Shown: positions 9,347 to 50,089 of the stretch, piece after piece
Numbering within the stretch: the stretch's first letter is position 1
Layout of the letters: every line of letters begins with the position of its first letter
Program-made: the position numbers and the translations under genes
The notes under the pieces: generated by a model
Database searches by the model: none
Told to the model about the DNA's origin: nothing
What the model saw: only the letters and a program-made list of their open reading frames with translations
NCBI GenBank assembly: GCA_041402045.1
Contig: JAWKSZ010000023.1
Span: 32,837 to 96,836, forward strand
Length of the DNA stretch: 64,000 nt
Direction of reading: 5' to 3'
Origin: Planctomycetota bacterium
GTDB lineage: Bacteria; Planctomycetota; J058

Positions 9347-11202
9347 GTGAGCGACGACGACGCGACCTTCGACGACAGCCGCATGTCGATCGGATCTCAC
9401 CTCGAGGAGCTGCGCTGGCACGTGCTCAAGGCCGTGGGCTACGTGTCCATTGCCTTCGTGATCGCGTTCTACCTGCAGGGGCCCTTGCTCAAGGTGGCGC
9501 AGTGGCCCTACGAGCGCGCCGCCAAGAACGTGATCGACTCGCGCGTGATCCCCGGGGTCGACAACGACCTGCGCGACTCGCTGGTCGCGGTCGACGACGG
9601 CTACCGTCAGCTCGACCAGAGCTTGAACGAGGCGGCCAAGGACGAGCTCCTGCTCCTCGACGCCCTCGAGCCGGGGCAACTGCAGAAGGACCTCGAGCAG
9701 CTGCTCGAGCAGCAAGCGAGCCTGGGCAAGGAGATCGCCGAGCTCCAGGAGCGCTACGTCGCGCTGCTCGACGCCGACGAGGTCAGCTTCCAACAGATCC
9801 TCGACCTGCGCGCCGAGCGCGAGGGCCTGCTCGCGCAGCAGCGGCAGCTCCAGAGTGTGATCGAGGAGCGGGTGGGTCCGTTCAAGGACCGCATGGCCAA
9901 GCTCCCGCGCATGGAGCTGACCCAGATCCGGCCCCAGGAGGCGTTCCTCTCCGCGCTCAAGCTGTCCCTGGTGGTGGCCTTGTTCTGCGCCTCGCCCCTG
10001 GTCGCCCGCGAGCTGTGGAGCTTCGTGTCCAAGGGCCTCTACCACCACGAGAAGTACGATGCGCTACTGCGCCGCTGACCGTGGTCGCGTTCATGTGCGG
10101 CGCCGCCTTCGGCTACTTCGTGCTGATCCCCTACGGCGTCGAGTTCCTGATCGGCTACCTCCCGGACGTGTCGGGGAGTATCTCCTTCGGCGAGTACCTC
10201 AAGCTGTTCACCCTGCTCACCGTGCTCCTGGGCGCGGTGTTCGAGCTGCCGTTGATCATGGTGTTCCTGACCCTGATCGGCGTGGGCAGCGCCCCGCTCT
10301 ACCGGCGCTACTTCAAGTACTGGGTGCTCGCCGCCTTCGTGATCGGCGCCGTGCTCACCCCTCCCGACCCCGTGACCCAGGTGCTGATGGCGGGGCCGCT
10401 GATCGCCCTGTTCTGGGTCGGCGTGGCGGGCTCGGCCTTCGTCGGCGCTCGCGTGCGTGAGACCGACGAGGACGAGGACGAGACGCCGCCGCCGGCAACC
10501 GCCGCGCCGCCGGCGCCGGGACCCCAACCCGCGCCGAGCGCGCAGCCCGCGCCGAGCGCGCAGCCCGCGCCGAGCGCGCGGCCCGCGCCGAGTGTGCCGC
10601 CGCTGCCGGTGCTCGCTCCGCCCCAGGGAACGCGTCCGCGCAGCGACACGCCGGACGAGGACGAGGACGCGGCCACGGCGAGCGCACCGCCTGCGTCCCC
10701 GCGTCGACCGGGTCCCCCGCGTCGCCGCGGACCGACGCGGCGTCCCGCGCGGCGTGCCCCGTCACGCCCTGCGCCGTCGGGGACCGGCTCCGCGCCGTCG
10801 GGGACCGGCTCCGCGCCGCCGGGCACCGGCCCCGCGCCGTCGGGCACTGGCTCCACGCCGTCGGGCACGGGCCCTGCGGCTTCCGGTTCGGGGAGCGGCG
10901 CCGTCGAGCCTCCTGTGCCGGCGGTGCCACAGGTCACCCACGGCAGCCAGTCGCACTACACCCTCAGCTCGAGCGAGCTCGACGACCTCGCGGCCCGGCG
11001 CGCCGCCCTCGAGGCGGAGCTCATGGCCGAGGAGGAGGACGACGAGGAGTTGCCCTGGACCCCGGAGCCTGACGACGCCGACCCCGAGGAGTTCCTCGGG
11101 GAGTCGGTGGAGCAGCCGCCGCCGCCGCGCCCCGGACCGAAGCCGGGCTCCGGCGAGTTCTACGGGGACGCCGCGGAGAGCCAGGACGGCGAACCCCGGT
11201 GA
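9347..11202 (+). CDS. tatC: twin-arginine translocase subunit TatC, oversized, with apparent frameshift near 10060-10078
   Basis: Frame A (9347-10078) carries TatC N-terminus, TM1 and TM2 (SHLEELRWHVLKAVGYVSIAFVIAFYL ... SALKLSLVVALFCASPLVARELWSFVSKGLYHHEKY). Frame B (10060-11202) carries the TatC core (GAAFGYFVLIPYGVEFL, VFELPLIMVFL, LTPPDPVTQVLMAGPL) plus a ~250-aa P/A/S/G-rich tail. RBS GGGAGGGG before the GTG at 9347. Confidence 0.7.
10531..10602 (+). repeat. 18-bp tandem repeat (gcgccgagcgcgcagccc x4) encoding PAPSAQ repeats in the TatC tail
   Basis: Direct reading. Confidence 0.8.
10771..10896 (+). repeat. 21-bp tandem repeat (x6) encoding SGTGSAP repeats in the TatC tail
   Basis: Direct reading. 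Confidence 0.8.
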
Positions 11203-23715: not shown

Positions 23716-25896
23716 CTAGCTCCCGCCCAGGAAGCCGAACCAGCGCCGGGGGCGATCCGTGGGCTCCTTGCTCGCGTCGAGCTCGGCCTTGAGCCGCTGG
23801 GAGTCCTGCTGGGTTTCGTCGAGCATGGCCTGCAGGCGCTCGGAGTCGGCGGTCCGCCGCTCGAGCTGCGCCAGGAGCTCCTGCACGCGCTCGGCCTCGG
23901 CGTTGCGCGCGGCGACCAGCTCCTGCTGGCGGCGGGCGAAGCCGGCTCGGGCCTCCGCCAGCTCGTGGGTCAGGGTCTGCACCTTCTCGGCGCTCGCGGA
24001 CGTGCGGGCCTCGGCCAGGGCGCGGGCCAGGGCCTGGCCCTGCTCCCGGGCCTGGAGGGCCTGCGCCATGCTCTTGCGCACGAGCTCCTGGGCCTCGGCC
24101 AGCTGCGACTGCAGCCGGTCGCGCTCGGCTTCGAGATAGACGTGCTCCTCGACGGGGATCCCGCTGCCCTCGGCCAACTGCGCCAGGGCGTGCTGCAGCT
24201 CGCGCTGGGTCCGGCTGAGCTCGTCGTCGTCGCGGGTCAGCTCGCGCAGCTCCTCCAGCGCGCGGTCGCGCTCCTGGCTGGCGAGCTTGAGCGCCGTCCG
24301 GGCGGCGTCGCGCTCGGACTCGGCGTGCACCCGCGACTCCTCGGCGGCGGCCATGCGCTCGAGGGCCGCGGACAGCCCGAGGGTCGCCTGCTCGAGCTCC
24401 GCGCGGGCCGGCTCGCCGCCCGAGCGCGCCTCGGCCAGGGCCTGCTCCAGCTCGCGCACCCGCGCCGCCAGCCTCGCCTCGTCGCCCTCAGGGGCGGGGC
24501 GCGCGGCCTCGGCGCGCACCTCCGCGTGGACCCGGGCCTGGTGCTCGGCCTTGAGCGCGTCCGCGGACTCCCCCAGGGCGCGCTGGGCGGCGTTGCGCTC
24601 GCGCTCGACCGCATGGGTGCGGGCCACCGCCGCGCTGAGCTGTCCCTGCAGGGCTGCGGCCTCCGCGCGCGCGCCGCGCAGCGCGTCGACCGCCTGCTGC
24701 TGCTCGCGCTCGGCGTCGCGCGCCCGGCCGCGGCTGGCCTGGAGCTCGCGCTCGAGGGCCTCGCGCTCGGCGGCGTGCTCGGCGCTCAAGGTCTGCTCGC
24801 GCTGGACCATGCGCTCTCCGGCGCGCTCCAGCTCGCCGTGCAGCGCGTCCCGCTCGGCCTCGAGCCCCGCGGCGCGATCCCGGGCGGCGGCGGCCTCGGC
24901 CTCGGCGGCGGTCAAGCGGGCCTTGAAGGTGCTCACCCGCTCGTCGAGCTCGCGCTGCAGCAGATCCCGCTCGTCGGCGAGGCCCAGGGCGCGGGCCTCG
25001 GCCTCGGTCGCCGCCTCGCGGGCCGCCTCGAGCTCGATCTGCGCAGCGGCGCAGTCGGCCTGGGCGGCGTCGCGGGCGCGGGCGGCGCGGGTCACGTCGG
25101 CCTCCAGGGTCGCGAGCCGGTCGAGGAGCTCGGTGTGCGCCCCGGTGGAGACCAGGGCCGTCTGCTGGGCTTCGCTCAGCGCGTGCTCCAGCTCGTGGAG
25201 GTGGGTCGAGAGGTTCTGGCGGGCGCCGGCGGCCTCGTCGCGCTCGTCGATCAGGCGCTGGCACGCGCTGCGCGCCTGGTCCAGGTCTGCGCGGAGCTCG
25301 GCCAGCTCCTCCTGGTGCACCGCGCCGCGCGCGTCGAGCTCTGCCGTCGCCGCGCGGGCGCGCTCGGTCGCTGCAGCCTGCTCGGCCTCGGCCTCCGCCG
25401 CGCGCCGGGTGGCGCGCAGCGCGTCGGCCTCCGCGGACTCGGCCCGCTCGCGCGCGTCGCGGAGCTCGGCTTCCCGGGCCTCGAGCGCGGCTCGGGTCGC
25501 GTCGAGCTCGGCCTGCACCGCGACGACCGCGGCCCCCGGGAGCTCGGGAGCGTCGGCAGCGGCGGTCTTCTTGGCGGCGGTCTTCTTGGACGCGGTCGTC
25601 TTCTTGGCGGCGGTCTTCTTGGACGCGGTCTTCTTCTTGGCGGCGGTCTTCTTGGACGCGGTCTTCTTCTTGGCGGCGGTCTTCTTGGACGCGGTCTTCT
25701 TCTTGGCGGCGGTCGTCTTGGACGCGGTCTTCTTCTTGGTGGCGGTCTTCTTCTTGGCGGCGGTCTTCTTCTTGGCGGCGGTCTTCCTCTTGGACGCGGT
25801 CCCAGACGGCGGTTCGCCGCCGCTCTGAGGGCGGGGGCGGGCCTGCGAGGAGGCTGCGCTGCGCGGCGACTTGCCGGACGGGGATCGGGAGGGCAT
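23716..25896 (-). CDS. histone-H1-like K-rich repeat / long coiled-coil protein
   Basis: ATG at 25896 with GAAGGAG 7 nt upstream. N-terminal TAAKKK repeats, then ~550 aa of A/E/R/L-rich coiled coil. Confidence 0.8.
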   Translation of the reverse strand: MPSRSPSGKSPRSAASSQARPRPQSGGEPPSGTASKRKTAAKKKTAAKKKTATKKKTASKTTAAKKKTASKKTAAKKKTASKKTAAKKKTASKKTAAKKTTASKKTAAKKTAAADAPELPGAAVVAVQAELDATRAALEAREAELRDARERAESAEADALRATRRAAEAEAEQAAATERARAATAELDARGAVHQEELAELRADLDQARSACQRLIDERDEAAGARQNLSTHLHELEHALSEAQQTALVSTGAHTELLDRLATLEADVTRAARARDAAQADCAAAQIELEAAREAATEAEARALGLADERDLLQRELDERVSTFKARLTAAEAEAAAARDRAAGLEAERDALHGELERAGERMVQREQTLSAEHAAEREALERELQASRGRARDAEREQQQAVDALRGARAEAAALQGQLSAAVARTHAVERERNAAQRALGESADALKAEHQARVHAEVRAEAARPAPEGDEARLAARVRELEQALAEARSGGEPARAELEQATLGLSAALERMAAAEESRVHAESERDAARTALKLASQERDRALEELRELTRDDDELSRTQRELQHALAQLAEGSGIPVEEHVYLEAERDRLQSQLAEAQELVRKSMAQALQAREQGQALARALAEARTSASAEKVQTLTHELAEARAGFARRQQELVAARNAEAERVQELLAQLERRTADSERLQAMLDETQQDSQRLKAELDASKEPTDRPRRWFGFLGGS
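25556..25800 (-). repeat. 33-bp tandem repeat (~7 copies) encoding KKKTASKKTAA units
   Basis: Direct reading (ggcggcggtcttcttggacgcggtcttcttctt units on the plus strand). Confidence 0.85.
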
Positions 25897-28337: not shown

Positions 28338-28946
28338 TCAGGCGGTCGCTTCGACCCGCTGCGCGGCGAGCCGGCGCGCGGTCTCTTCGACGGCCAGGCG
28401 CAGCGCAGCGACGTTGTGCGCGCGAGCGGGGGCGCCGTAGGGCAGGTGCAGGAAGCCCACGGGCGTCCGCTCCTCGCCCAGGCGACAGGCGAGCCAGTAG
28501 TAGACCGCGTTGCAGAGGTAGCCGCCGGCGTCCTCCGAGAGGCTGCAGGCGATGCCTGCGCGGTCGAGGCGCTGCTTGATCCCCGCCACCGGCAGCGTGC
28601 CGTAGACCAGCGCGGGTCCCCGCGGCTCGATCTGGCGGTCCTGGAGCAGGTTGCCGTCGACGTCGGGGATCGTGTAGTCCAGGCGGTTGCGGGCGGAGAG
28701 CTCCAGGCGCACGGGGCCCTGCAGCGCCGCGTAGATCCCGCAGGAGATCACCGCGGCCACCGGCTCGGCGCTGAGCGCCTCTTCGAGGGCCGCGCGGGCG
28801 CGCTCGAACTGCACGGGGAGCACCAGGCTCCGAATGCGGAACCCTTCGTAGGACTCGCCGGCCAGAGCCTGCACCGCGTCCTGTGAAGGGTTCGTCGAAT
28901 GTTCACCGAACGGTCCGAAACCGGTCAGCAGGATCGGCTCCTGCAT
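28338..28946 (-). CDS. pcp: pyroglutamyl-peptidase I
   Basis: 202 aa. ILLTGFGPFG, catalytic LSEDAGGYLCN and His region. ATG with AGGAGG upstream. Confidence 0.9.
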   Translation of the reverse strand: MQEPILLTGFGPFGEHSTNPSQDAVQALAGESYEGFRIRSLVLPVQFERARAALEEALSAEPVAAVISCGIYAALQGPVRLELSARNRLDYTIPDVDGNLLQDRQIEPRGPALVYGTLPVAGIKQRLDRAGIACSLSEDAGGYLCNAVYYWLACRLGEERTPVGFLHLPYGAPARAHNVAALRLAVEETARRLAAQRVEATA

Positions 28947-29032
28947 GCAGCCTCCTGTCGGACGACGCCTGACCCCCGGATCATAGCCGAGTCTCCAGGC
29001 AGAGGCGAGCGCCTCGCGATCCTCGTCGCAGC

Positions 29033-29356
29033 TCAGGAGCCGCCGGCGGATTCGGGGCCAGCGAGCTCCGCGGGGGGTGGAACGGAGTCCTGGTAGCACA
29101 GATCGAAGGGCAGGCAGGCGGTGTCGGCCACGAGGCAGAGCGGCACGTCGACCAGCGCGACCGGAATCCACCAGGGGCCGGAGCCCAGGGACGTGGCCCA
29201 CAGGCGCACACCGGCGTAGGGGACACCCCGCGCGTCGGCGTCGACCGCGTGGGTCGGACCGCCGACCACGACCGTCCCCACCTTGCTGACGACGGTGGCG
29301 CAGCCCGAGGCAGCGAGGAGCAAGCAGAGGATCAGGGAACGCATGAGGGTTGGCAT
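29033..29356 (-). CDS. small putative lipoprotein
   Basis: 107 aa. Signal peptide with lipobox-like LLLAASGC. GGAGAG 6 nt before the ATG. Confidence 0.5.
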   Translation of the reverse strand: MPTLMRSLILCLLLAASGCATVVSKVGTVVVGGPTHAVDADARGVPYAGVRLWATSLGSGPWWIPVALVDVPLCLVADTACLPFDLCYQDSVPPPAELAGPESAGGS

Positions 29357-29499
29357 GACGAGCTCTCCACGCGGCAGGACGGTGCAAGCCTCGTGCCCTG
29401 ACCCAACTCACTTGGTGGAGTGCAAGGCCGTCCAGAGTCCGTCAGGAACGTGAGAAACCGCACGTCGGCGAGCCGCGCGGCGCGCCTCGGCGGCGGGCG

Positions 29500-30180
29500 G
29501 CCGGCGGCCCGCCTGAATGCGACCTCGCGAAGCGCGCCCAGCGAGGGGCGAAGCCCCGAGCGCGCAGCGGCCGGCGAAGCCTGGCCCCCACGCGAAGCGA
29601 ACCGCGACTGCGGTCCAGCGAGGCGGGGGGCGAAGCGCGCAGCGTCCCACACGCGAAGCGGACCGCAGCGGTTCTGCCGAAAGCGGTCTGGCGAAGCGAG
29701 CACCGGCCCCAAACGCGAAGCGGACCGCAGCTGCGGTCCGGCCGAAGCCGCGGTCCGGCCGAAAGCGGTCTAGCGAAGCGGGCACGGGCCCTAACCGCGA
29801 AGCGGCCGGCGAAGCCTGGCCCGCACGCGAAGCGGACCGCGACTGCGGTTCAGCGAGGCGAGGGGCGAAGCCGCGCAGCGGCCCACACGCGAAGCGGACC
29901 GCAACTGCGGTCCGGCTGAAAGCGGTCTAGCGAAGCGGGCACCGGCCCCAAACGCGAGCGGACCGCCCGAACGTACGTCGCGAGGCGCGGCCAGCGAGGG
30001 GCGAGGCCCCGAGCGCGCAGCGCCCAGCGAGGGGCGAAGCCGCGCGGCGGCCCACACGCGAAGCGGACCGCGACTGCGGTCCGCCCGAACGCGACCTCGC
30101 GAAGCGCGCCCAGCGAGGGGCGAAGCCCCGAGCGCGCAGCGGCCGGCGAAGCCGGCCGCGAGCCTTGGGGTGAGGCCGAG
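29500..30180. repeat. mosaic array of palindromic repeats (period ~62/125 bp) between rpsI and the lipoprotein gene
   Basis: At least 7 copies of cacgcgaagcggaccgcRRctgcggtcc, which contains the perfect 18-bp palindrome ggaccgcagctgcggtcc. These are interleaved with two other recurring units and flanked by ~75-bp direct repeats (29517-29590 and 30083-30160). Confidence 0.85.
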
Positions 30181-30236
30181 GGGCTTTGCCCCGAGGCCGA
30201 GGGGGGCCTCGGAAGGCCCCCATAGTAGCGCTTGGA

Positions 30237-30626
30237 GAACTGGAAGGAGGCGCGAGCGCCCCGCTTGCCGGGCTTCTTGCGCTCGACCTGGCGCGAGTCG
30301 CGGGTCAGGTAGCCGGCGTCCTTGAGCTTCTGGTAGTGCTCGGGGTTGGCCTTGACCAGCGCGCGGGCGATGCCCATGCGCACCGCGCCGGCCTGGCCGC
30401 TGAGCCCGCCGCCGTTGACGTTGACGTGCACGTCGAAGTTGTCGCGGGCGCCCACCAGGCGCAGCGGCGCCAGGAGGTGGATCTGATCCTGCTCGCGCAC
30501 GAAGTACTCTTCGAGGTTGCGCTTGCCGGTGAAGAAGAAGTGCCCGCTCCCGTTGGGGGACAGGCGCACGCGCGCGACGGCGGCCTTGCGCCGACCGGTT
30601 CCGCGGAAGAAGTTCTCGTTGCTCAC
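30237..30626 (-). CDS. rpsI: 30S ribosomal protein S9; expected stop codon absent, ORF runs on to 29850
   Basis: GTG start. [12 protein letters not shown]...[19 protein letters not shown]...FQFSKR is the complete conserved S9. The next codon is TAC (30225-30227), not a stop. A GC hairpin (30202-30221) follows. Confidence 0.85.
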
Positions 30627-31271: not shown

Positions 31272-32816
31272 TCAGGCGTCGTCGTCGAGGAGACCCGACG
31301 CGAAGTCCGAGCTGACCTCGGGCTCCGCAGCCACGGCCGCGGGGGCCTTCTTGGGCTGCGGCTTGGGCGCGGCCTTGGCCGGAGCCTTGGGCTTGGACTT
31401 GGCCTTGGGAGCCTCCTCCTCGAGCAGCCCGGCCGCGAAGTCGGTGTCGTCGCCGTCGGCGTCGCCCTCGTCGTCGCTGCGCTCGTTCTGCTCGACCGCG
31501 CCCTCGTCGCTGCGCTCGCCGCGACGGCGGCGACGGCGACGGCGACGCTTGGGCTCGTCGTCACCCTCCTCGACGCTGGCCTCGTCCGAGCCGTCGACGT
31601 TGGAGTCGAAGTAGTGGAGGGGATCCCCGCGCTCGGCGCGGGAGCCGCCGCCACGACGCCGGCGACGGCCGCCGCCGCTGGTCGAGGTCTTGAGCGTGCC
31701 CTGAATGATCTCGGTCATGCTCTCGATGTCGCGGTGCTCGTCGGCGTTGAACACGAGGTTCTCGCCGTCGCCCTCGTCGTCGCCTGCGTCCTCGGCGCCG
31801 TCGCGGTCCCGGCCGCGGCCCCGACGCCGACGGCGCCGACGACGCCCGCCCTCGCGGTCGTCGTCGTCGTCGCGATCGCGATCGCGGTCCCGGTCGCGGT
31901 CGCGCCCACGGCCGCCGCGCTCGCCGCGCTCGCGACCCTTGCCGCCGCGGGAGCTGCGCCCGCTGCGCTCACGGCCGCTGCTGCCGCTGCCGCCGGCGAT
32001 CTTCTTCAGCTCCTCGACCTCGTCCATGGCCTGCTCGATCAGGTTCAGCGAGACCTGCTCGCCGCCCTCGATCATGCCCATGAGCAGACCCAGGTCACCC
32101 AGGCGGTTCAGCAGCCGGGGGTAGCCCTCGGCCGCCTGCACGGCCGCGGTCAGGGCCTCGTCGCTCAGCACGTCGGCCTTGGCGCCGGCCTTCTCCAGGC
32201 GGTGCTTGAGGTAGGTGACCCCCTCCTCCGCGCTCAGAGGCAGCAGCTCGTAGCCGACCTCGAGGCGGTGGACCAGGCTGTGGCGCTTCTTGAGGGTCCC
32301 GCGCAGGCGCGGATGGCCGGTCAGCACGCAGGTCAGGAGGGTGGTGCCGTCGGTGGTGGTCAGGTCCAGGATCGTGCGCAGCTCCTCGAAGGTGCGCCCG
32401 TCCGGGAGGCAGTCGGCGTTGTCGATGATCAGCACCGGGTAGCGCGACTTGCTCAGCTTGGACTCGAGCAGCTTGCGCAGCGCGTAGGTCAACTCGGCGC
32501 GGGTGCCGGGCACGGGCTCGCCGTTGGAGAAGGCCACGAAGGCCTGCTGCAGGAGGTCGAGGCCGTGCTCGACGCCAGCGGCGGAGATCCAGGCGGTGTC
32601 GCAGCTGCGACCCTGGAGCTGCTCGGCCGCGCGACGGCAGACGAAGGTCTTGCCGACGCCGCTCTCGCCGATCAGGAGCGCGAGGGGCTTGCGCTGCTCG
32701 ACGGCATACTTGATCCGGACCAGGGCCTCTTTGTGGTTCTCGCTTTCGAAGAAGAAGGCGGTGTTTTGATCGTTCTCAAACGGTTTCTTGTCGAGGTGCC
32801 AGTGGGCTTCGTACAT
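31272..32816 (-). CDS. ExeA/GspA-like AAA+ ATPase with a long R/D/E-rich disordered C-terminal tail
   Basis: Walker A (LLIGESGVGKT) and Walker B (LIIDNADCL). Tail contains RDRDRDRDRDDDDD and poly-R runs. Confidence 0.8.
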   Translation of the reverse strand: MYEAHWHLDKKPFENDQNTAFFFESENHKEALVRIKYAVEQRKPLALLIGESGVGKTFVCRRAAEQLQGRSCDTAWISAAGVEHGLDLLQQAFVAFSNGEPVPGTRAELTYALRKLLESKLSKSRYPVLIIDNADCLPDGRTFEELRTILDLTTTDGTTLLTCVLTGHPRLRGTLKKRHSLVHRLEVGYELLPLSAEEGVTYLKHRLEKAGAKADVLSDEALTAAVQAAEGYPRLLNRLGDLGLLMGMIEGGEQVSLNLIEQAMDEVEELKKIAGGSGSSGRERSGRSSRGGKGRERGERGGRGRDRDRDRDRDRDDDDDREGGRRRRRRRRGRGRDRDGAEDAGDDEGDGENLVFNADEHRDIESMTEIIQGTLKTSTSGGGRRRRRGGGSRAERGDPLHYFDSNVDGSDEASVEEGDDEPKRRRRRRRRRGERSDEGAVEQNERSDDEGDADGDDTDFAAGLLEEEAPKAKSKPKAPAKAAPKPQPKKAPAAVAAEPEVSSDFASGLLDDDA

Positions 32817-37535: not shown

Positions 37536-38579
37536 ATGGTCCAGATCAACTTCGCCAAGCGCGAAATCAACTGCAAGCTCGTGTACTACGGGCCGGGGTT
37601 GTCGGGGAAGACCACCAACCTCGAGGTCGTGCACAAGAAGGCACCGGCCTCGAAGAAGGGTGAGCTGACCTCGATCGCCACCGAGGGCGATCGCACCCTG
37701 TTCTTCGACTACATGCCGCTCGAGCTGGGCAAGGTCGGCGGCATGAACACGAAGTTCCAGTTGTACACGGTGCCGGGCCAGGTCTACTACAACGCCACCC
37801 GTAAGCTCGTGCTCCAGGGCGCGGACGGGGTGGTGTTCGTCGCGGACTCCCAGCCCGACAAGATGGACGAGAACATCGAGAGCTTCCAGAACCTGGAGGA
37901 GAACCTGAGGGAGCAGGGCCTGCAGCCCGAGACGATCCCCATGGTCCTGCAGTGGAACAAGCGCGACTTGCCCAACGTCTGCGACGTCAGCGAGCTCGAC
38001 AAGAAGCTCAACAAGTACAACAGCCCGACCTTCGAGGCCGTCGCGGTCACCGGCGAGGGGGTGTTCCCCACCCTCAAGAAGCTGGCGCAGATGGTGCTCG
38101 AGAAGCTCAACAAGGAGTACGGGCTCAACCCCGACAAGAAGGGCGAGGCGGGCAAGAAGGAGACCGCGGCGGCGCCGGCGGCCAAGCCGGAGCCGAAGCC
38201 GGAGCCCAAGCCCGAGCCCAAGCCCGAGCGTCGCCCGGAGCCGAAGCCCGAGCCCGTCGCCGAGCGGCGAGCGGAGCCGAAGCCGGAGCGGCGGGCGGAG
38301 CCGAAGCCCGAGCGGCGCGAGCCTGCGCCGCTGCCCAGCGGCAACCGCAAGCCTCAGGGCTACGACATCGGGAGCGGCGCGCTGCCGCCTCCGCCCAAGA
38401 AGGGCGGCGGCAAGGGCCTGATGATCGTGATGCTCCTGATCCTGGTGGTGGCCGGGGCGTTCATCGGCGGCGGCTATACGGGTAAGCTGGAGCAGGCGGT
38501 GCCTGCGCTCCAGAAGTTCTACGACGACAAGCTCGCACCCACCCTCGGCGGCGGCTCCCAGAGCGCCGGCGGGGAGTAG
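37536..38579 (+). CDS. MglA-family small GTPase with C-terminal PEPK-repeat linker and transmembrane helix
   Basis: First ~195 aa align closely to MglA (GPGLSGKTT, TDRTLFFDY, TVPGQ, NKRD, AVTGEGV). Followed by (PEPK)n/ERRAEPKP repeats, then LMIVMLLILVVAGAFIGGGY and a short tail. Confidence 0.9.
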   Translation: MVQINFAKREINCKLVYYGPGLSGKTTNLEVVHKKAPASKKGELTSIATEGDRTLFFDYMPLELGKVGGMNTKFQLYTVPGQVYYNATRKLVLQGADGVVFVADSQPDKMDENIESFQNLEENLREQGLQPETIPMVLQWNKRDLPNVCDVSELDKKLNKYNSPTFEAVAVTGEGVFPTLKKLAQMVLEKLNKEYGLNPDKKGEAGKKETAAAPAAKPEPKPEPKPEPKPERRPEPKPEPVAERRAEPKPERRAEPKPERREPAPLPSGNRKPQGYDIGSGALPPPPKKGGGKGLMIVMLLILVVAGAFIGGGYTGKLEQAVPALQKFYDDKLAPTLGGGSQSAGGE

Positions 38580-46177: not shown

Positions 46178-46250
46178 GCAGCCATAGCTCAGTTGGTTAG
46201 AGCGCCTGATTGTGGATCAGGAGGTCGCCGGTTCGAATCCAGCTGGCTGT
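46178..46250 (+). tRNA. tRNA-His (anticodon GTG), atypical acceptor end
   Basis: Manual cloverleaf: acceptor GCAGCCA/TGGCTGT (G1-U72), D arm GCTC/GAGC, anticodon stem CCTGA/TCAGG with loop TTGTGGA, T arm GCCGG-TTCGAAT-CCAGC (one C-A mismatch). Discriminator A73. Base -1 is C. No encoded CCA. Confidence 0.75.
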
Positions 46251-46255
46251 ATGCG

Positions 46256-49087: not shown

Positions 49088-50089
49088 CAGAAGAGTGAAT
49101 CTGTAGGGTAGCTGACTCCCACCCCTGGTGCTTCACTCGCAGCCAGTTCTGCATGGACGCCGCACCACAGTGCGGACACTTGATCACCCGCTTTCGGAAG
49201 CCCGGGCGCCGAACTTCGCCTTCAAGTGCTTCAGAACTTCTTCCTGGCTTAGCTCGCTCACGTGGATCTCCTTGGTCAATATCTCCGGCGAGGTCGTTGG
49301 CCTGGAGTGCGCACTGGTAGGCGTCATAGACACAAAAGATCGCGAGGCAGAACCAGCCGAGGAAGACCAGTAGGAACGCTGCCGGGTCTGCGTGGCTCGC
49401 GATTATCACCGCCCAGAAGATCGTCACACCAACGATCGGCGCGAAGAAGAAGGTCAAGCCTCGGAGCGCGCGCCCGGCGTAGAGCTGCCCGAGGCCGAGA
49501 ATGAAGAAGGAGAGCACGGCCGCGGTTCCGGGGTTCGCCTGTTGACGGACGATGACGACGCGCGACGACCCCCAGCTCGCACCCGCCCCGACGCGCGTCT
49601 CCGCTGAGAGCTCCTGCGTGAGCTCCCGCGGCGCTGCGGGCCCCTGGCCTCCCGAACCTCGCAGCCGCAGAACCGGCACACGCGGGCGGCCGGTTTGATC
49701 AGCTCCGCGCAGTCGGGGCAAGGAACCTCGGTCACCGGGGTGATCGGCTGGCTGTCGAACCCGCTGGGCTCTTGCTTCGCGGCCTTGGCGCGCTCAAACT
49801 CGAGCTTGGCCCAGGCCAGGTCCAGCTTTTCCTGTTCGAGCTTCGAGCGCTCCTCCTCTACGGTCGGCGGCTCGTTGCCGACCATGGTGTTGAACACCTC
49901 GCCGGAGTCCGTGGGGAGGGCGTCCTCGGCGCTCTGGCTCACCCCTGCGTCCTTCTGCGCCGCGATCTCCGGGAGCGTGGGCACCTTCACGCCGCTCTTG
50001 CACTTGGGACACTTGCCAGTGGCGCCCGCGTGCTTGCTGCTGACCCGGATCCGCCGGGAGCACTGGGGGCAGGGGAAGAAGATCGGCAT
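48771..50089 (-). pseudogene. double zinc-ribbon + TM2-like membrane protein, apparently frameshifted
   Basis: Frame 1 (50089-49454) has CPQC...CPKC and CPDC...CRFCGC zinc ribbons, then an R/S-rich tail. Frame 2 (49721-~49150) carries the TM2-like hydrophobic core (AVLSFFILGLGQLYAGRALRGLTFFFAPIVG...) and runs on across the DUF4145 gene. Confidence 0.4.

Follow-up and report, generated by a model that had tools for sequence, protein, structure and literature searches.

The locus described here lies in a 64-kb window, by which we mean the whole stretch of planctomycete DNA that was analysed (64,000 nt). The genes around it are all on the minus strand and comprise rplM, rpsI, an ORF for a 107-aa lipoprotein, pcp and the gene for a TPR protein. 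Downstream of rpsI and upstream of the lipoprotein ORF is a dense non-coding repeat array (29504-30160), which had been noticed in a first-pass annotation and was found again here over this extent; it is assigned to neither strand, its motifs are written on the plus strand, opposite to the flanking genes, and it consists of several repeat families. The core of rpsI, which encodes ribosomal protein S9, is 133 codons long (30228-30626, minus strand) and ends in FQFSKR. The small lipoprotein gene (29033-29356, minus strand) has a LAASGC lipobox and is weakly YceK/DUF1375-like, with a Pfam E value of 0.002 that falls just below the curated cut-off for this family. It is gene-like in other ways: it has a coding GC3 pattern, a GGAG 8 nt ahead of the ATG and about 20 distant homologues. 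A distant homologue, P0130 (42% identity; 3001-3333 in contigs L325/L326), is encoded 123 nt downstream of a gene for a 2002-aa SpvB/TcdB/RHS-repeat toxin, which is the usual position of an immunity gene. The pcp gene (28341-28946, minus strand) encodes pyroglutamyl peptidase I and directly follows rpsI in relatives. On the other side of the operon, upstream of rplM, is an AAA_22 ATPase gene (31272-32816, minus strand) whose product has a very long, low-complexity C-terminal half rich in Arg, Asp, Glu and Gly, a tail also found in the relative L001.

The array has a GC content of about 75% (G260, C244, A121, T32) and is a mosaic of two or three unit types. Both of its ends are formed by a direct repeat on the plus strand. 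The left copy (29504-29581) serves as the reference for family D2, and the right copy (30076-30153) is 96% identical to it and begins 572 nt further on; these are the bracketing repeats that had been put at about 75 bp, and their measured length is 78 nt. Seven units, all read on the plus strand, have only their left half in common, ACGCG(A)AGCG(G/A)ACCGC, so that the start of a unit can be written CCCNNACGCG(A)AGCG(G/A)ACCGC. Six of the seven match the left-half sequence ACGCGAAGCGGACCGC with one mismatch at most, and the seventh has a 1-nt deletion. The remainder of the unit comes in different kinds: the type a tail runs AGCGAGGCGRGGGGCGAAGC...CCCAC, the type b tail runs GGCYGAAAGCGGTCTRGCGAAGCG...CCCCAA, and a third kind of tail is fused to the 78-nt block that also makes both array ends. 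Type a tails are found in unit 1 (29585-29650) and unit 4 (29820-29886), and type b tails in unit 2 (29646-29712), unit 3 (29708-29794), which has an internal 17-nt duplication, and unit 5 (29882-29949). Unit 6 (29945-30055), whose left half carries the 1-nt deletion, is fused to a diverged copy (71%) of the terminal repeat, and unit 7 (30051-30120) continues into the right terminal repeat. The two main tails alternate in a rough A-B pattern, as the first reading of the sequence had proposed.

The second hallmark of the units is an 18-nt palindrome, GGACCGCAGCTGCGGTCC, contained in a 27-nt conserved element and present in five copies with 0-3 mismatches, compared with 0.27 expected by chance. 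A perfect copy is found only in unit 3 (29722-29739). The other four copies have one to three mismatches, mostly in the central four bases, and lie in unit 1 (29599-29616, three mismatches), unit 4 (29834-29851, three), unit 5 (29896-29913, one) and unit 7 (30065-30082, two). In unit 2 the palindrome is degenerate, with a truncated right arm, and in unit 6 it is missing. The array had been described as at least seven copies of a 28-bp element that carry a perfect palindrome; there are indeed seven units with a common left half, but the palindrome is present in five of them and perfect in one.

The units are not evenly laid out. Repeat copies are spaced at 61, 62, 112, 62 and 169 nt, with copy identities of 69-100%, and the reported period of about 62 bp holds for some neighbouring units (61-62 nt apart; family D3) but not for the array as a whole. 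Autocorrelation did not find a single period. Tandem Repeats Finder (TRF) reports a period of 61 with only 2.6 copies, because larger duplications overlie the units. These higher-order duplications occur at offsets of 157, 169, 235 and 572 nt.

Superimposed on the units is a short motif with a striking orientation. The heptamer GCGAAGC occurs 20 times on the plus strand of the array and 0 times on the minus strand, and all units have the same orientation; in the rest of the window its density is about 0.18 per kb per strand. Counted as CGA(A/G)GC, there are 26 motifs in about 700 nt, 20 of them within GCGAAGC, and they are fully strand-specific. The octamer GCGAAGCG had been credited with more than 15 occurrences, but 13 were counted in the array, all on the plus strand; both strands of the remaining 63 kb together have 6. 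Its total over the whole window (19, compared with 11.3 expected; GCGTTGCG is an example of an octamer of the same composition) is near chance, and it is the clustering and the strand bias that are extreme. The base composition of the array is similarly lopsided, with an AT skew of up to +0.67 and an A:T ratio of 3.8:1 on the plus strand. A helical-phasing test of the array motifs gave no signal. Such a complete strand bias is beyond what slippage alone explains, and the make-up of the founder unit may be its cause.

The array is non-coding. GC1, GC2 and GC3 are flat at 0.76-0.78 in every frame, and the GC3 of the flanking genes is 0.89-0.97. Long ORFs can be drawn across the array because its minus strand is A-poor and hence has few stop codons; they give only R/A/P-rich peptides, as was first observed, and a Pfam search of the six-frame translations of the array returned no match. 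Three minus-strand translations of the array were also compared with 5.8 billion proteins, again with no match, which is a weak negative since gene calling had left the array portion of L081, the sister-strain contig described below, without an ORF.

One of these reading frames begins in rpsI itself. The window has TAC TAT in the stop position of the gene (30225-30227, minus strand), which results in a 258-aa ORF that runs 125 codons into the array, to 29850. S9 homologues all end at SKR, and a contig from a sister strain (L084, run SRR33375180), which is 99.85% identical over 2 kb, encodes a normal S9 of 133 aa that ends with a TAG stop. Between the window and this contig, eight positions differ over the 33 nt that follow rpsI, through one substitution and four indels, compared with three substitutions in the 2035 nt before them. 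The source MAG (locus tags R3F62_) has accessions for Pcp (MEZ6186127), the lipoprotein (MEZ6186128) and L13 (MEZ6186129) and no protein record for S9, which falls between the latter two and was therefore presumably annotated as a pseudogene. No record was found by exact look-up of either the 258-aa S9 ORF or the 514-aa ATPase. Because the sister strain has a TAG, the missing stop codon of rpsI probably reflects a mistake of assembly or consensus calling at a GC hairpin. At most it would be a strain-specific lesion, and the run-on into the array is not a translated extension.

Folded as RNA, the whole region exceeds shuffled sequence in stability whichever strand is taken (z = -4.2 and -4.4), and single units folded apart do not outperform shuffles of equal composition (z from +2.1 to -1.9). 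Locally outstanding hairpins, with a local z of about -3, occur only at the rpsI-proximal end. One is a perfect 9-bp hairpin, GCGGCCGGC-GAA-GCCGGCCGC (30139-30159, assigned to neither strand), which reads GCGGCCGGC-UUC-GCCGGCCGC as RNA; the local fold of 30100-30165 on the minus strand has z = -3.0. Another is an 8-bp GC hairpin directly 3' of rpsI (30202-30221, minus strand), which has no U tract and whose stem is 9 bp long in the sister strain, and the third hairpin at this end is a GGGGC-UUC-GCCCC stem. A scan for consensus promoters and terminators found nothing, with 0 intrinsic terminators on either strand: the hairpins are without the run of T that, as a U/T run after a GC-rich hairpin, marks an intrinsic terminator. 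A search with Rfam 15 at the gathering score found only a tRNA in the whole window, and at permissive thresholds the best scores in the array were 13-24 bits, compared with cut-offs of 43-90. Covariation in the stems was not found, variation being confined to the loops.

Comparison with two related Planctomycetota places the array on a segment of its own. Together with the lipoprotein gene, it makes up a lineage-specific segment of 1234 nt (28992-30225, assigned to neither strand), in place of which the closest relative has a 102-nt rpsI-pcp spacer. This relative (L001, MAG HKST-UBA89) has an S9 with 92% identity, its rpsI ends with TAA, and pcp starts about 150 nt later. A second relative (L002; S9 identity of 68%) has the same rplM-rpsI-pcp-TPR order. 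Neither genome has the array or the lipoprotein gene, and the gap between rpsI and pcp in the two is about 100-160 nt. The alignment with L001 (1631-1732) is lost precisely behind the TA of the rpsI stop codon and picks up again upstream of pcp, at a conserved GGCTATGAT block that may be the -10 element of this gene. No target-site duplication was found at the borders of the 1234-nt segment. This distribution suggests that the array and the lipoprotein gene are a lineage-specific gain, as the alternative, loss in both relatives, would require a larger number of events. It is therefore unlikely that a structured RNA or a binding array is conserved at this position. Structured-RNA or protein-binding modules had been among the first suggestions for the array and find little support, given relatives with no array at the locus, single units that fold as shuffles do and the lack of helical phasing.

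Repeats next to rpsI can also be seen elsewhere. Among 20 other rpsI loci examined, hairpin-rich repeats closely follow the gene in two, L004 and L007, which come from unrelated lineages; this is an anecdotal observation. In L004 (10376-10447), a perfect palindromic unit of 30 nt is repeated 2.4 times and begins at the rpsI stop codon. In L007, which is Planctomycetota PNC21, a unit of 293 nt is repeated 1.9 times (10470-11030) and has no fewer than six distinct hairpins, one of which bears a GTAG tag like a REP. Both fit the view that sites 3' of rpsI tolerate or collect such sequence.

A sister strain also reveals how the array varies. The Logan contig L081 (SRR33375180) contains the lipoprotein gene and 530 nt upstream of it, with 99.3% identity to the window, and joins window positions 29918-29942 directly to 29761-29785, so that 157 nt are missing. 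The missing sequence is a higher-order block (29786-29942, assigned to neither strand) which in the window is bounded by identical 25-mers, GAAAGCGGTCTAGCGAAGCGGGCAC, at 29761-29785 and 29918-29942; the exact 25-mer is all that both sites share. Five 31-mers that span the junction in L081 are absent from the window, and since Logan contigs are built from 31-mers, these must be present in the reads. The independent confirmation by sister-strain contigs applies to the window on either side of 30044-30205. A collapse on re-assembly had been named as a check on the array, and none is seen: the independent short-read contig retains the array without one 157-nt block. As a separate short-read assembly contains the array minus this block, the array is real and its length varies between near-identical strains. 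Nested direct duplications, together with a sister-strain block that is bounded by identical 25-mers, are the signature of slipped-strand mispairing or unequal recombination.

Searches for copies of the array at other places were negative. Neither blastn nor a repeat search nor a profile HMM of the unit detected a second copy within the 64-kb window. An exact pattern for a 23-base core had 0 matches in 185,579 GTDB species genomes, JGI metagenome contigs and IMG/VR viral contigs; blastn of the array against plasmids and phages returned nothing, and the array sequences were not found in the literature searched. A loose pattern, in which GCGAAGCG must occur three times with gaps, was searched against metagenomes and viruses, and the matches listed consisted mostly of microsatellites or of repeats within coding sequence; by blastn, none of those listed resembled the array. 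This pattern was run without a control pattern, and no claim is therefore made on the enrichment of stem-GAA-stem arrays. Tandem arrays of this style do occur in three unrelated contigs, which were chosen by the search pattern itself: L154 (145-644), L112 (1850-2060) and L115 (13520-13865), with the unit sequences CCGCGAAGCGG, GGCGCGAAGCGCC and GTGACGAAGTCAC. L154, a soil metagenome contig (Ga0126370_10017689), contains some 20 units, each of 22 nt, and a higher order of 154 nt.

Among the known kinds of repeat, an intergenic minisatellite or VNTR like the MIRU fits the array best, and REP/BIME elements come nearest in anatomy. The array consists of head-to-tail units in the minisatellite range of about 10-100 nt (seven aligned units, with a TRF period of 61), and its copy number is polymorphic between close strains, as L081 without the 157-nt block demonstrates. 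MIRUs are minisatellites with copy-number variation (PMC3635867). Like the MIRUs of mycobacteria, the array has head-to-tail units of tens of nucleotides, lies between co-oriented genes in a GC-rich genome and differs in copy number between strains. Unlike MIRUs, which have one uniform unit and are found at many loci of one genome, it is known from one locus and is a mosaic of several unit types with palindromic cores. A likeness at a smaller scale is to d(GCGAAGC), an extraordinarily stable DNA mini-hairpin that is present at some replication and transcription initiation sites (PMC13037366). This heptamer occurs 20 times on one strand of the array; however, the examples known from nature are isolated hairpins at priming or promoter sites of phages or plasmids rather than arrays in a chromosomal spacer. 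Other candidates were tried and rejected. An element derived from a MITE or IS does not agree with array termini that are direct rather than inverted, with no target-site duplication; an integron attC site or cassette was dismissed as there is no R'/R'' core site, and a retron as there is no reverse transcriptase.

The anatomical likeness to REP/BIME elements raises the question of whether this is a genuine family of that type, that is, a set of dispersed palindromes mobilised by a RAYT-type (Y1/HUH) transposase, of which the locus would be one head-to-tail cluster. REP stem-loops carry an unpaired GTAG or CGTC tag at one end, REP clusters in which units are reiterated in tandem with flanking DNA are known, and REPs have been reported in Planctomycetes (PMC3733652). 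Like these elements, the array has short GC-rich imperfect palindromes in a mosaic with linkers, its 18-nt palindromic cores within 27-nt conserved elements answering to the short (20-40 nt) imperfect palindrome of a REP; it also shares their extragenic position at the 3' end of an operon and their proposed passive roles in mRNA 3'-end protection and termination. The GTAG-tagged hairpins just downstream of rpsI in L007, another Planctomycetota genome, point the same way. However, the REP/BIME-like character that the first-pass annotation proposed holds for anatomy only, in the sense of clustered short palindromes. Dispersal is not seen in the 64 kb, in the 185,579 species genomes and JGI metagenomes searched with the exact pattern, or as a sequence relative in any of the public collections searched. 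No GTAG/CTAC or CGTC/GACG adjoins any of the palindromes, which are flanked by ACGCGAAGC on one side and by GGCC, AGCG or GCCC on the other, and the units are all direct, with none of the alternating orientation of BIMEs. Nor was a transposase, RAYT and Y1/HUH types included, found in a non-exhaustive scan of the window ORFs. On balance, we consider a REP/BIME-type family unlikely. A degenerate or orphan CRISPR array would account for a partly palindromic repeat of about 27 nt that recurs every 61-62 nt over short stretches, but CRISPR arrays have near-identical repeats and regular, unique spacers. In contrast, the 'spacers' here belong to two or three repeated classes that are akin to the repeats and carry the same GCGAAGC motif, the spacing varies from 61 to 169 nt, and there is no CRISPR-DR match in Rfam at E values up to 10. 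The ORFs tested within about 12 kb included no cas gene, and two 'spacer' cores had no match in viral contigs. This reading, which the first-pass annotation had also turned down, is already refuted on its defining features, and its probability is negligible.

It is also conceivable that the array is a functional cis-acting element, either as a regulatory leader or sRNA of the lipoprotein gene or as an array of sites for a DNA- or RNA-binding protein; in one variant, the plus-strand GCGAAGC copies would form mini-hairpins in single-stranded DNA. The density and strand specificity of the CGA(A/G)GC motifs (26 in about 700 nt), the documented stability of the d(GCGAAGC) mini-hairpin (PMC13037366) and the arrival of the array together with the lipoprotein gene all argue for such an element, as do the stem-GAA-stem tandem arrays of L154, L112 and L115, but the search pattern itself had picked these metagenome analogues, and it was run without a control. 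Against a function in cis are relatives that do without the array, a sister strain that dispenses with the 157-nt block, and the absence of helical phasing, of an Rfam family and of stem covariation in the array. We hold a cis-acting element to be quite unlikely. The same three contigs, because they carry arrays of the same style, also leave a slim chance that the array represents an undescribed class of strand-specific stem-GAA-stem (GCGAAGC-type) mini-hairpin arrays, or a newborn REP-like family before dispersal. If true, the mini-hairpin class would act on single-stranded DNA or as RNA, whether as a barrier to replication or transcription or as a platform for a hairpin-binding protein. Very improbable, finally, is an assembly artefact or a translated C-terminal extension of S9. 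An rpsI ORF that continues 125 codons into the array, a source MAG with no S9 protein record and the eight differing positions in the 33 nt after rpsI could be explained in this manner, but the array is present in independent Logan contigs that stem from a different sequencing run, codon-position GC is flat in the extension, homologues all end at SKR, and a 99.85% identical sister strain has the TAG stop and an S9 of 133 aa.

The array is better described as a locus-specific higher-order tandem repeat of variable copy number than as structured-RNA or binding modules or as REP/BIME. The explanation that we favour, with moderate confidence, is a fast-evolving minisatellite of short GC-rich hairpin modules that is non-coding and confined to this locus, and whose role as RNA structure is passive at most; within this minisatellite reading, a measurable effect on expression is perhaps possible but doubtful. 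Its seven units of about 62 nt, of two or three types, were subsequently duplicated in blocks of 157-572 nt. It would have arisen, and would still be changing, through slippage during replication or unequal recombination among its direct repeats, aided by the hairpins. In the cell, its stem-loops would be stacked in the 3' UTR of the rplM-rpsI transcript and in the 5' leader of the lipoprotein gene, where, like the REP clusters of enterobacteria, they could impede or halt read-through and stand in the way of 3'-to-5' exonucleases. The array probably acts, at most, as a barrier of RNA structure, and it would appear to have no conserved sequence-specific function.

Under the minisatellite reading, the array is a case of hairpin-rich repeats that arise and change length fast at the 3' end of a ribosomal-protein operon that is highly expressed. 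As a VNTR marker, it could help to tell strains of this uncultured planctomycete apart. Annotators should take care with such arrays, as their A-poor strand yields long false ORFs. Beyond its source genome the array is of little importance, and it would be of wider interest only if GAA-loop mini-hairpin arrays turn out to be a functional class.

Several other features of the window can be mentioned. A tandem repeat at 25526-25807 (period of 33 nt, 7 copies, 91% matches) lies in a 747-aa minus-strand ORF with no Pfam match, a Pro/Glu/Lys-rich repeat with a period of 12 nt lies in an Arf-like GTPase ORF (38164-38318), and two tandem repeats with periods of 18 and 21 nt are found at 10.5-10.9 kb (10503-10872); the periods of all of these are multiples of three. 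Further along, the gene for tRNA-His (46178-46251, plus strand) is followed by about 4 kb, to position 50000, in which GC content drops from about 72% to 63%. This low-GC stretch, which contains three ORFs with no Pfam match, may be a small genomic island.
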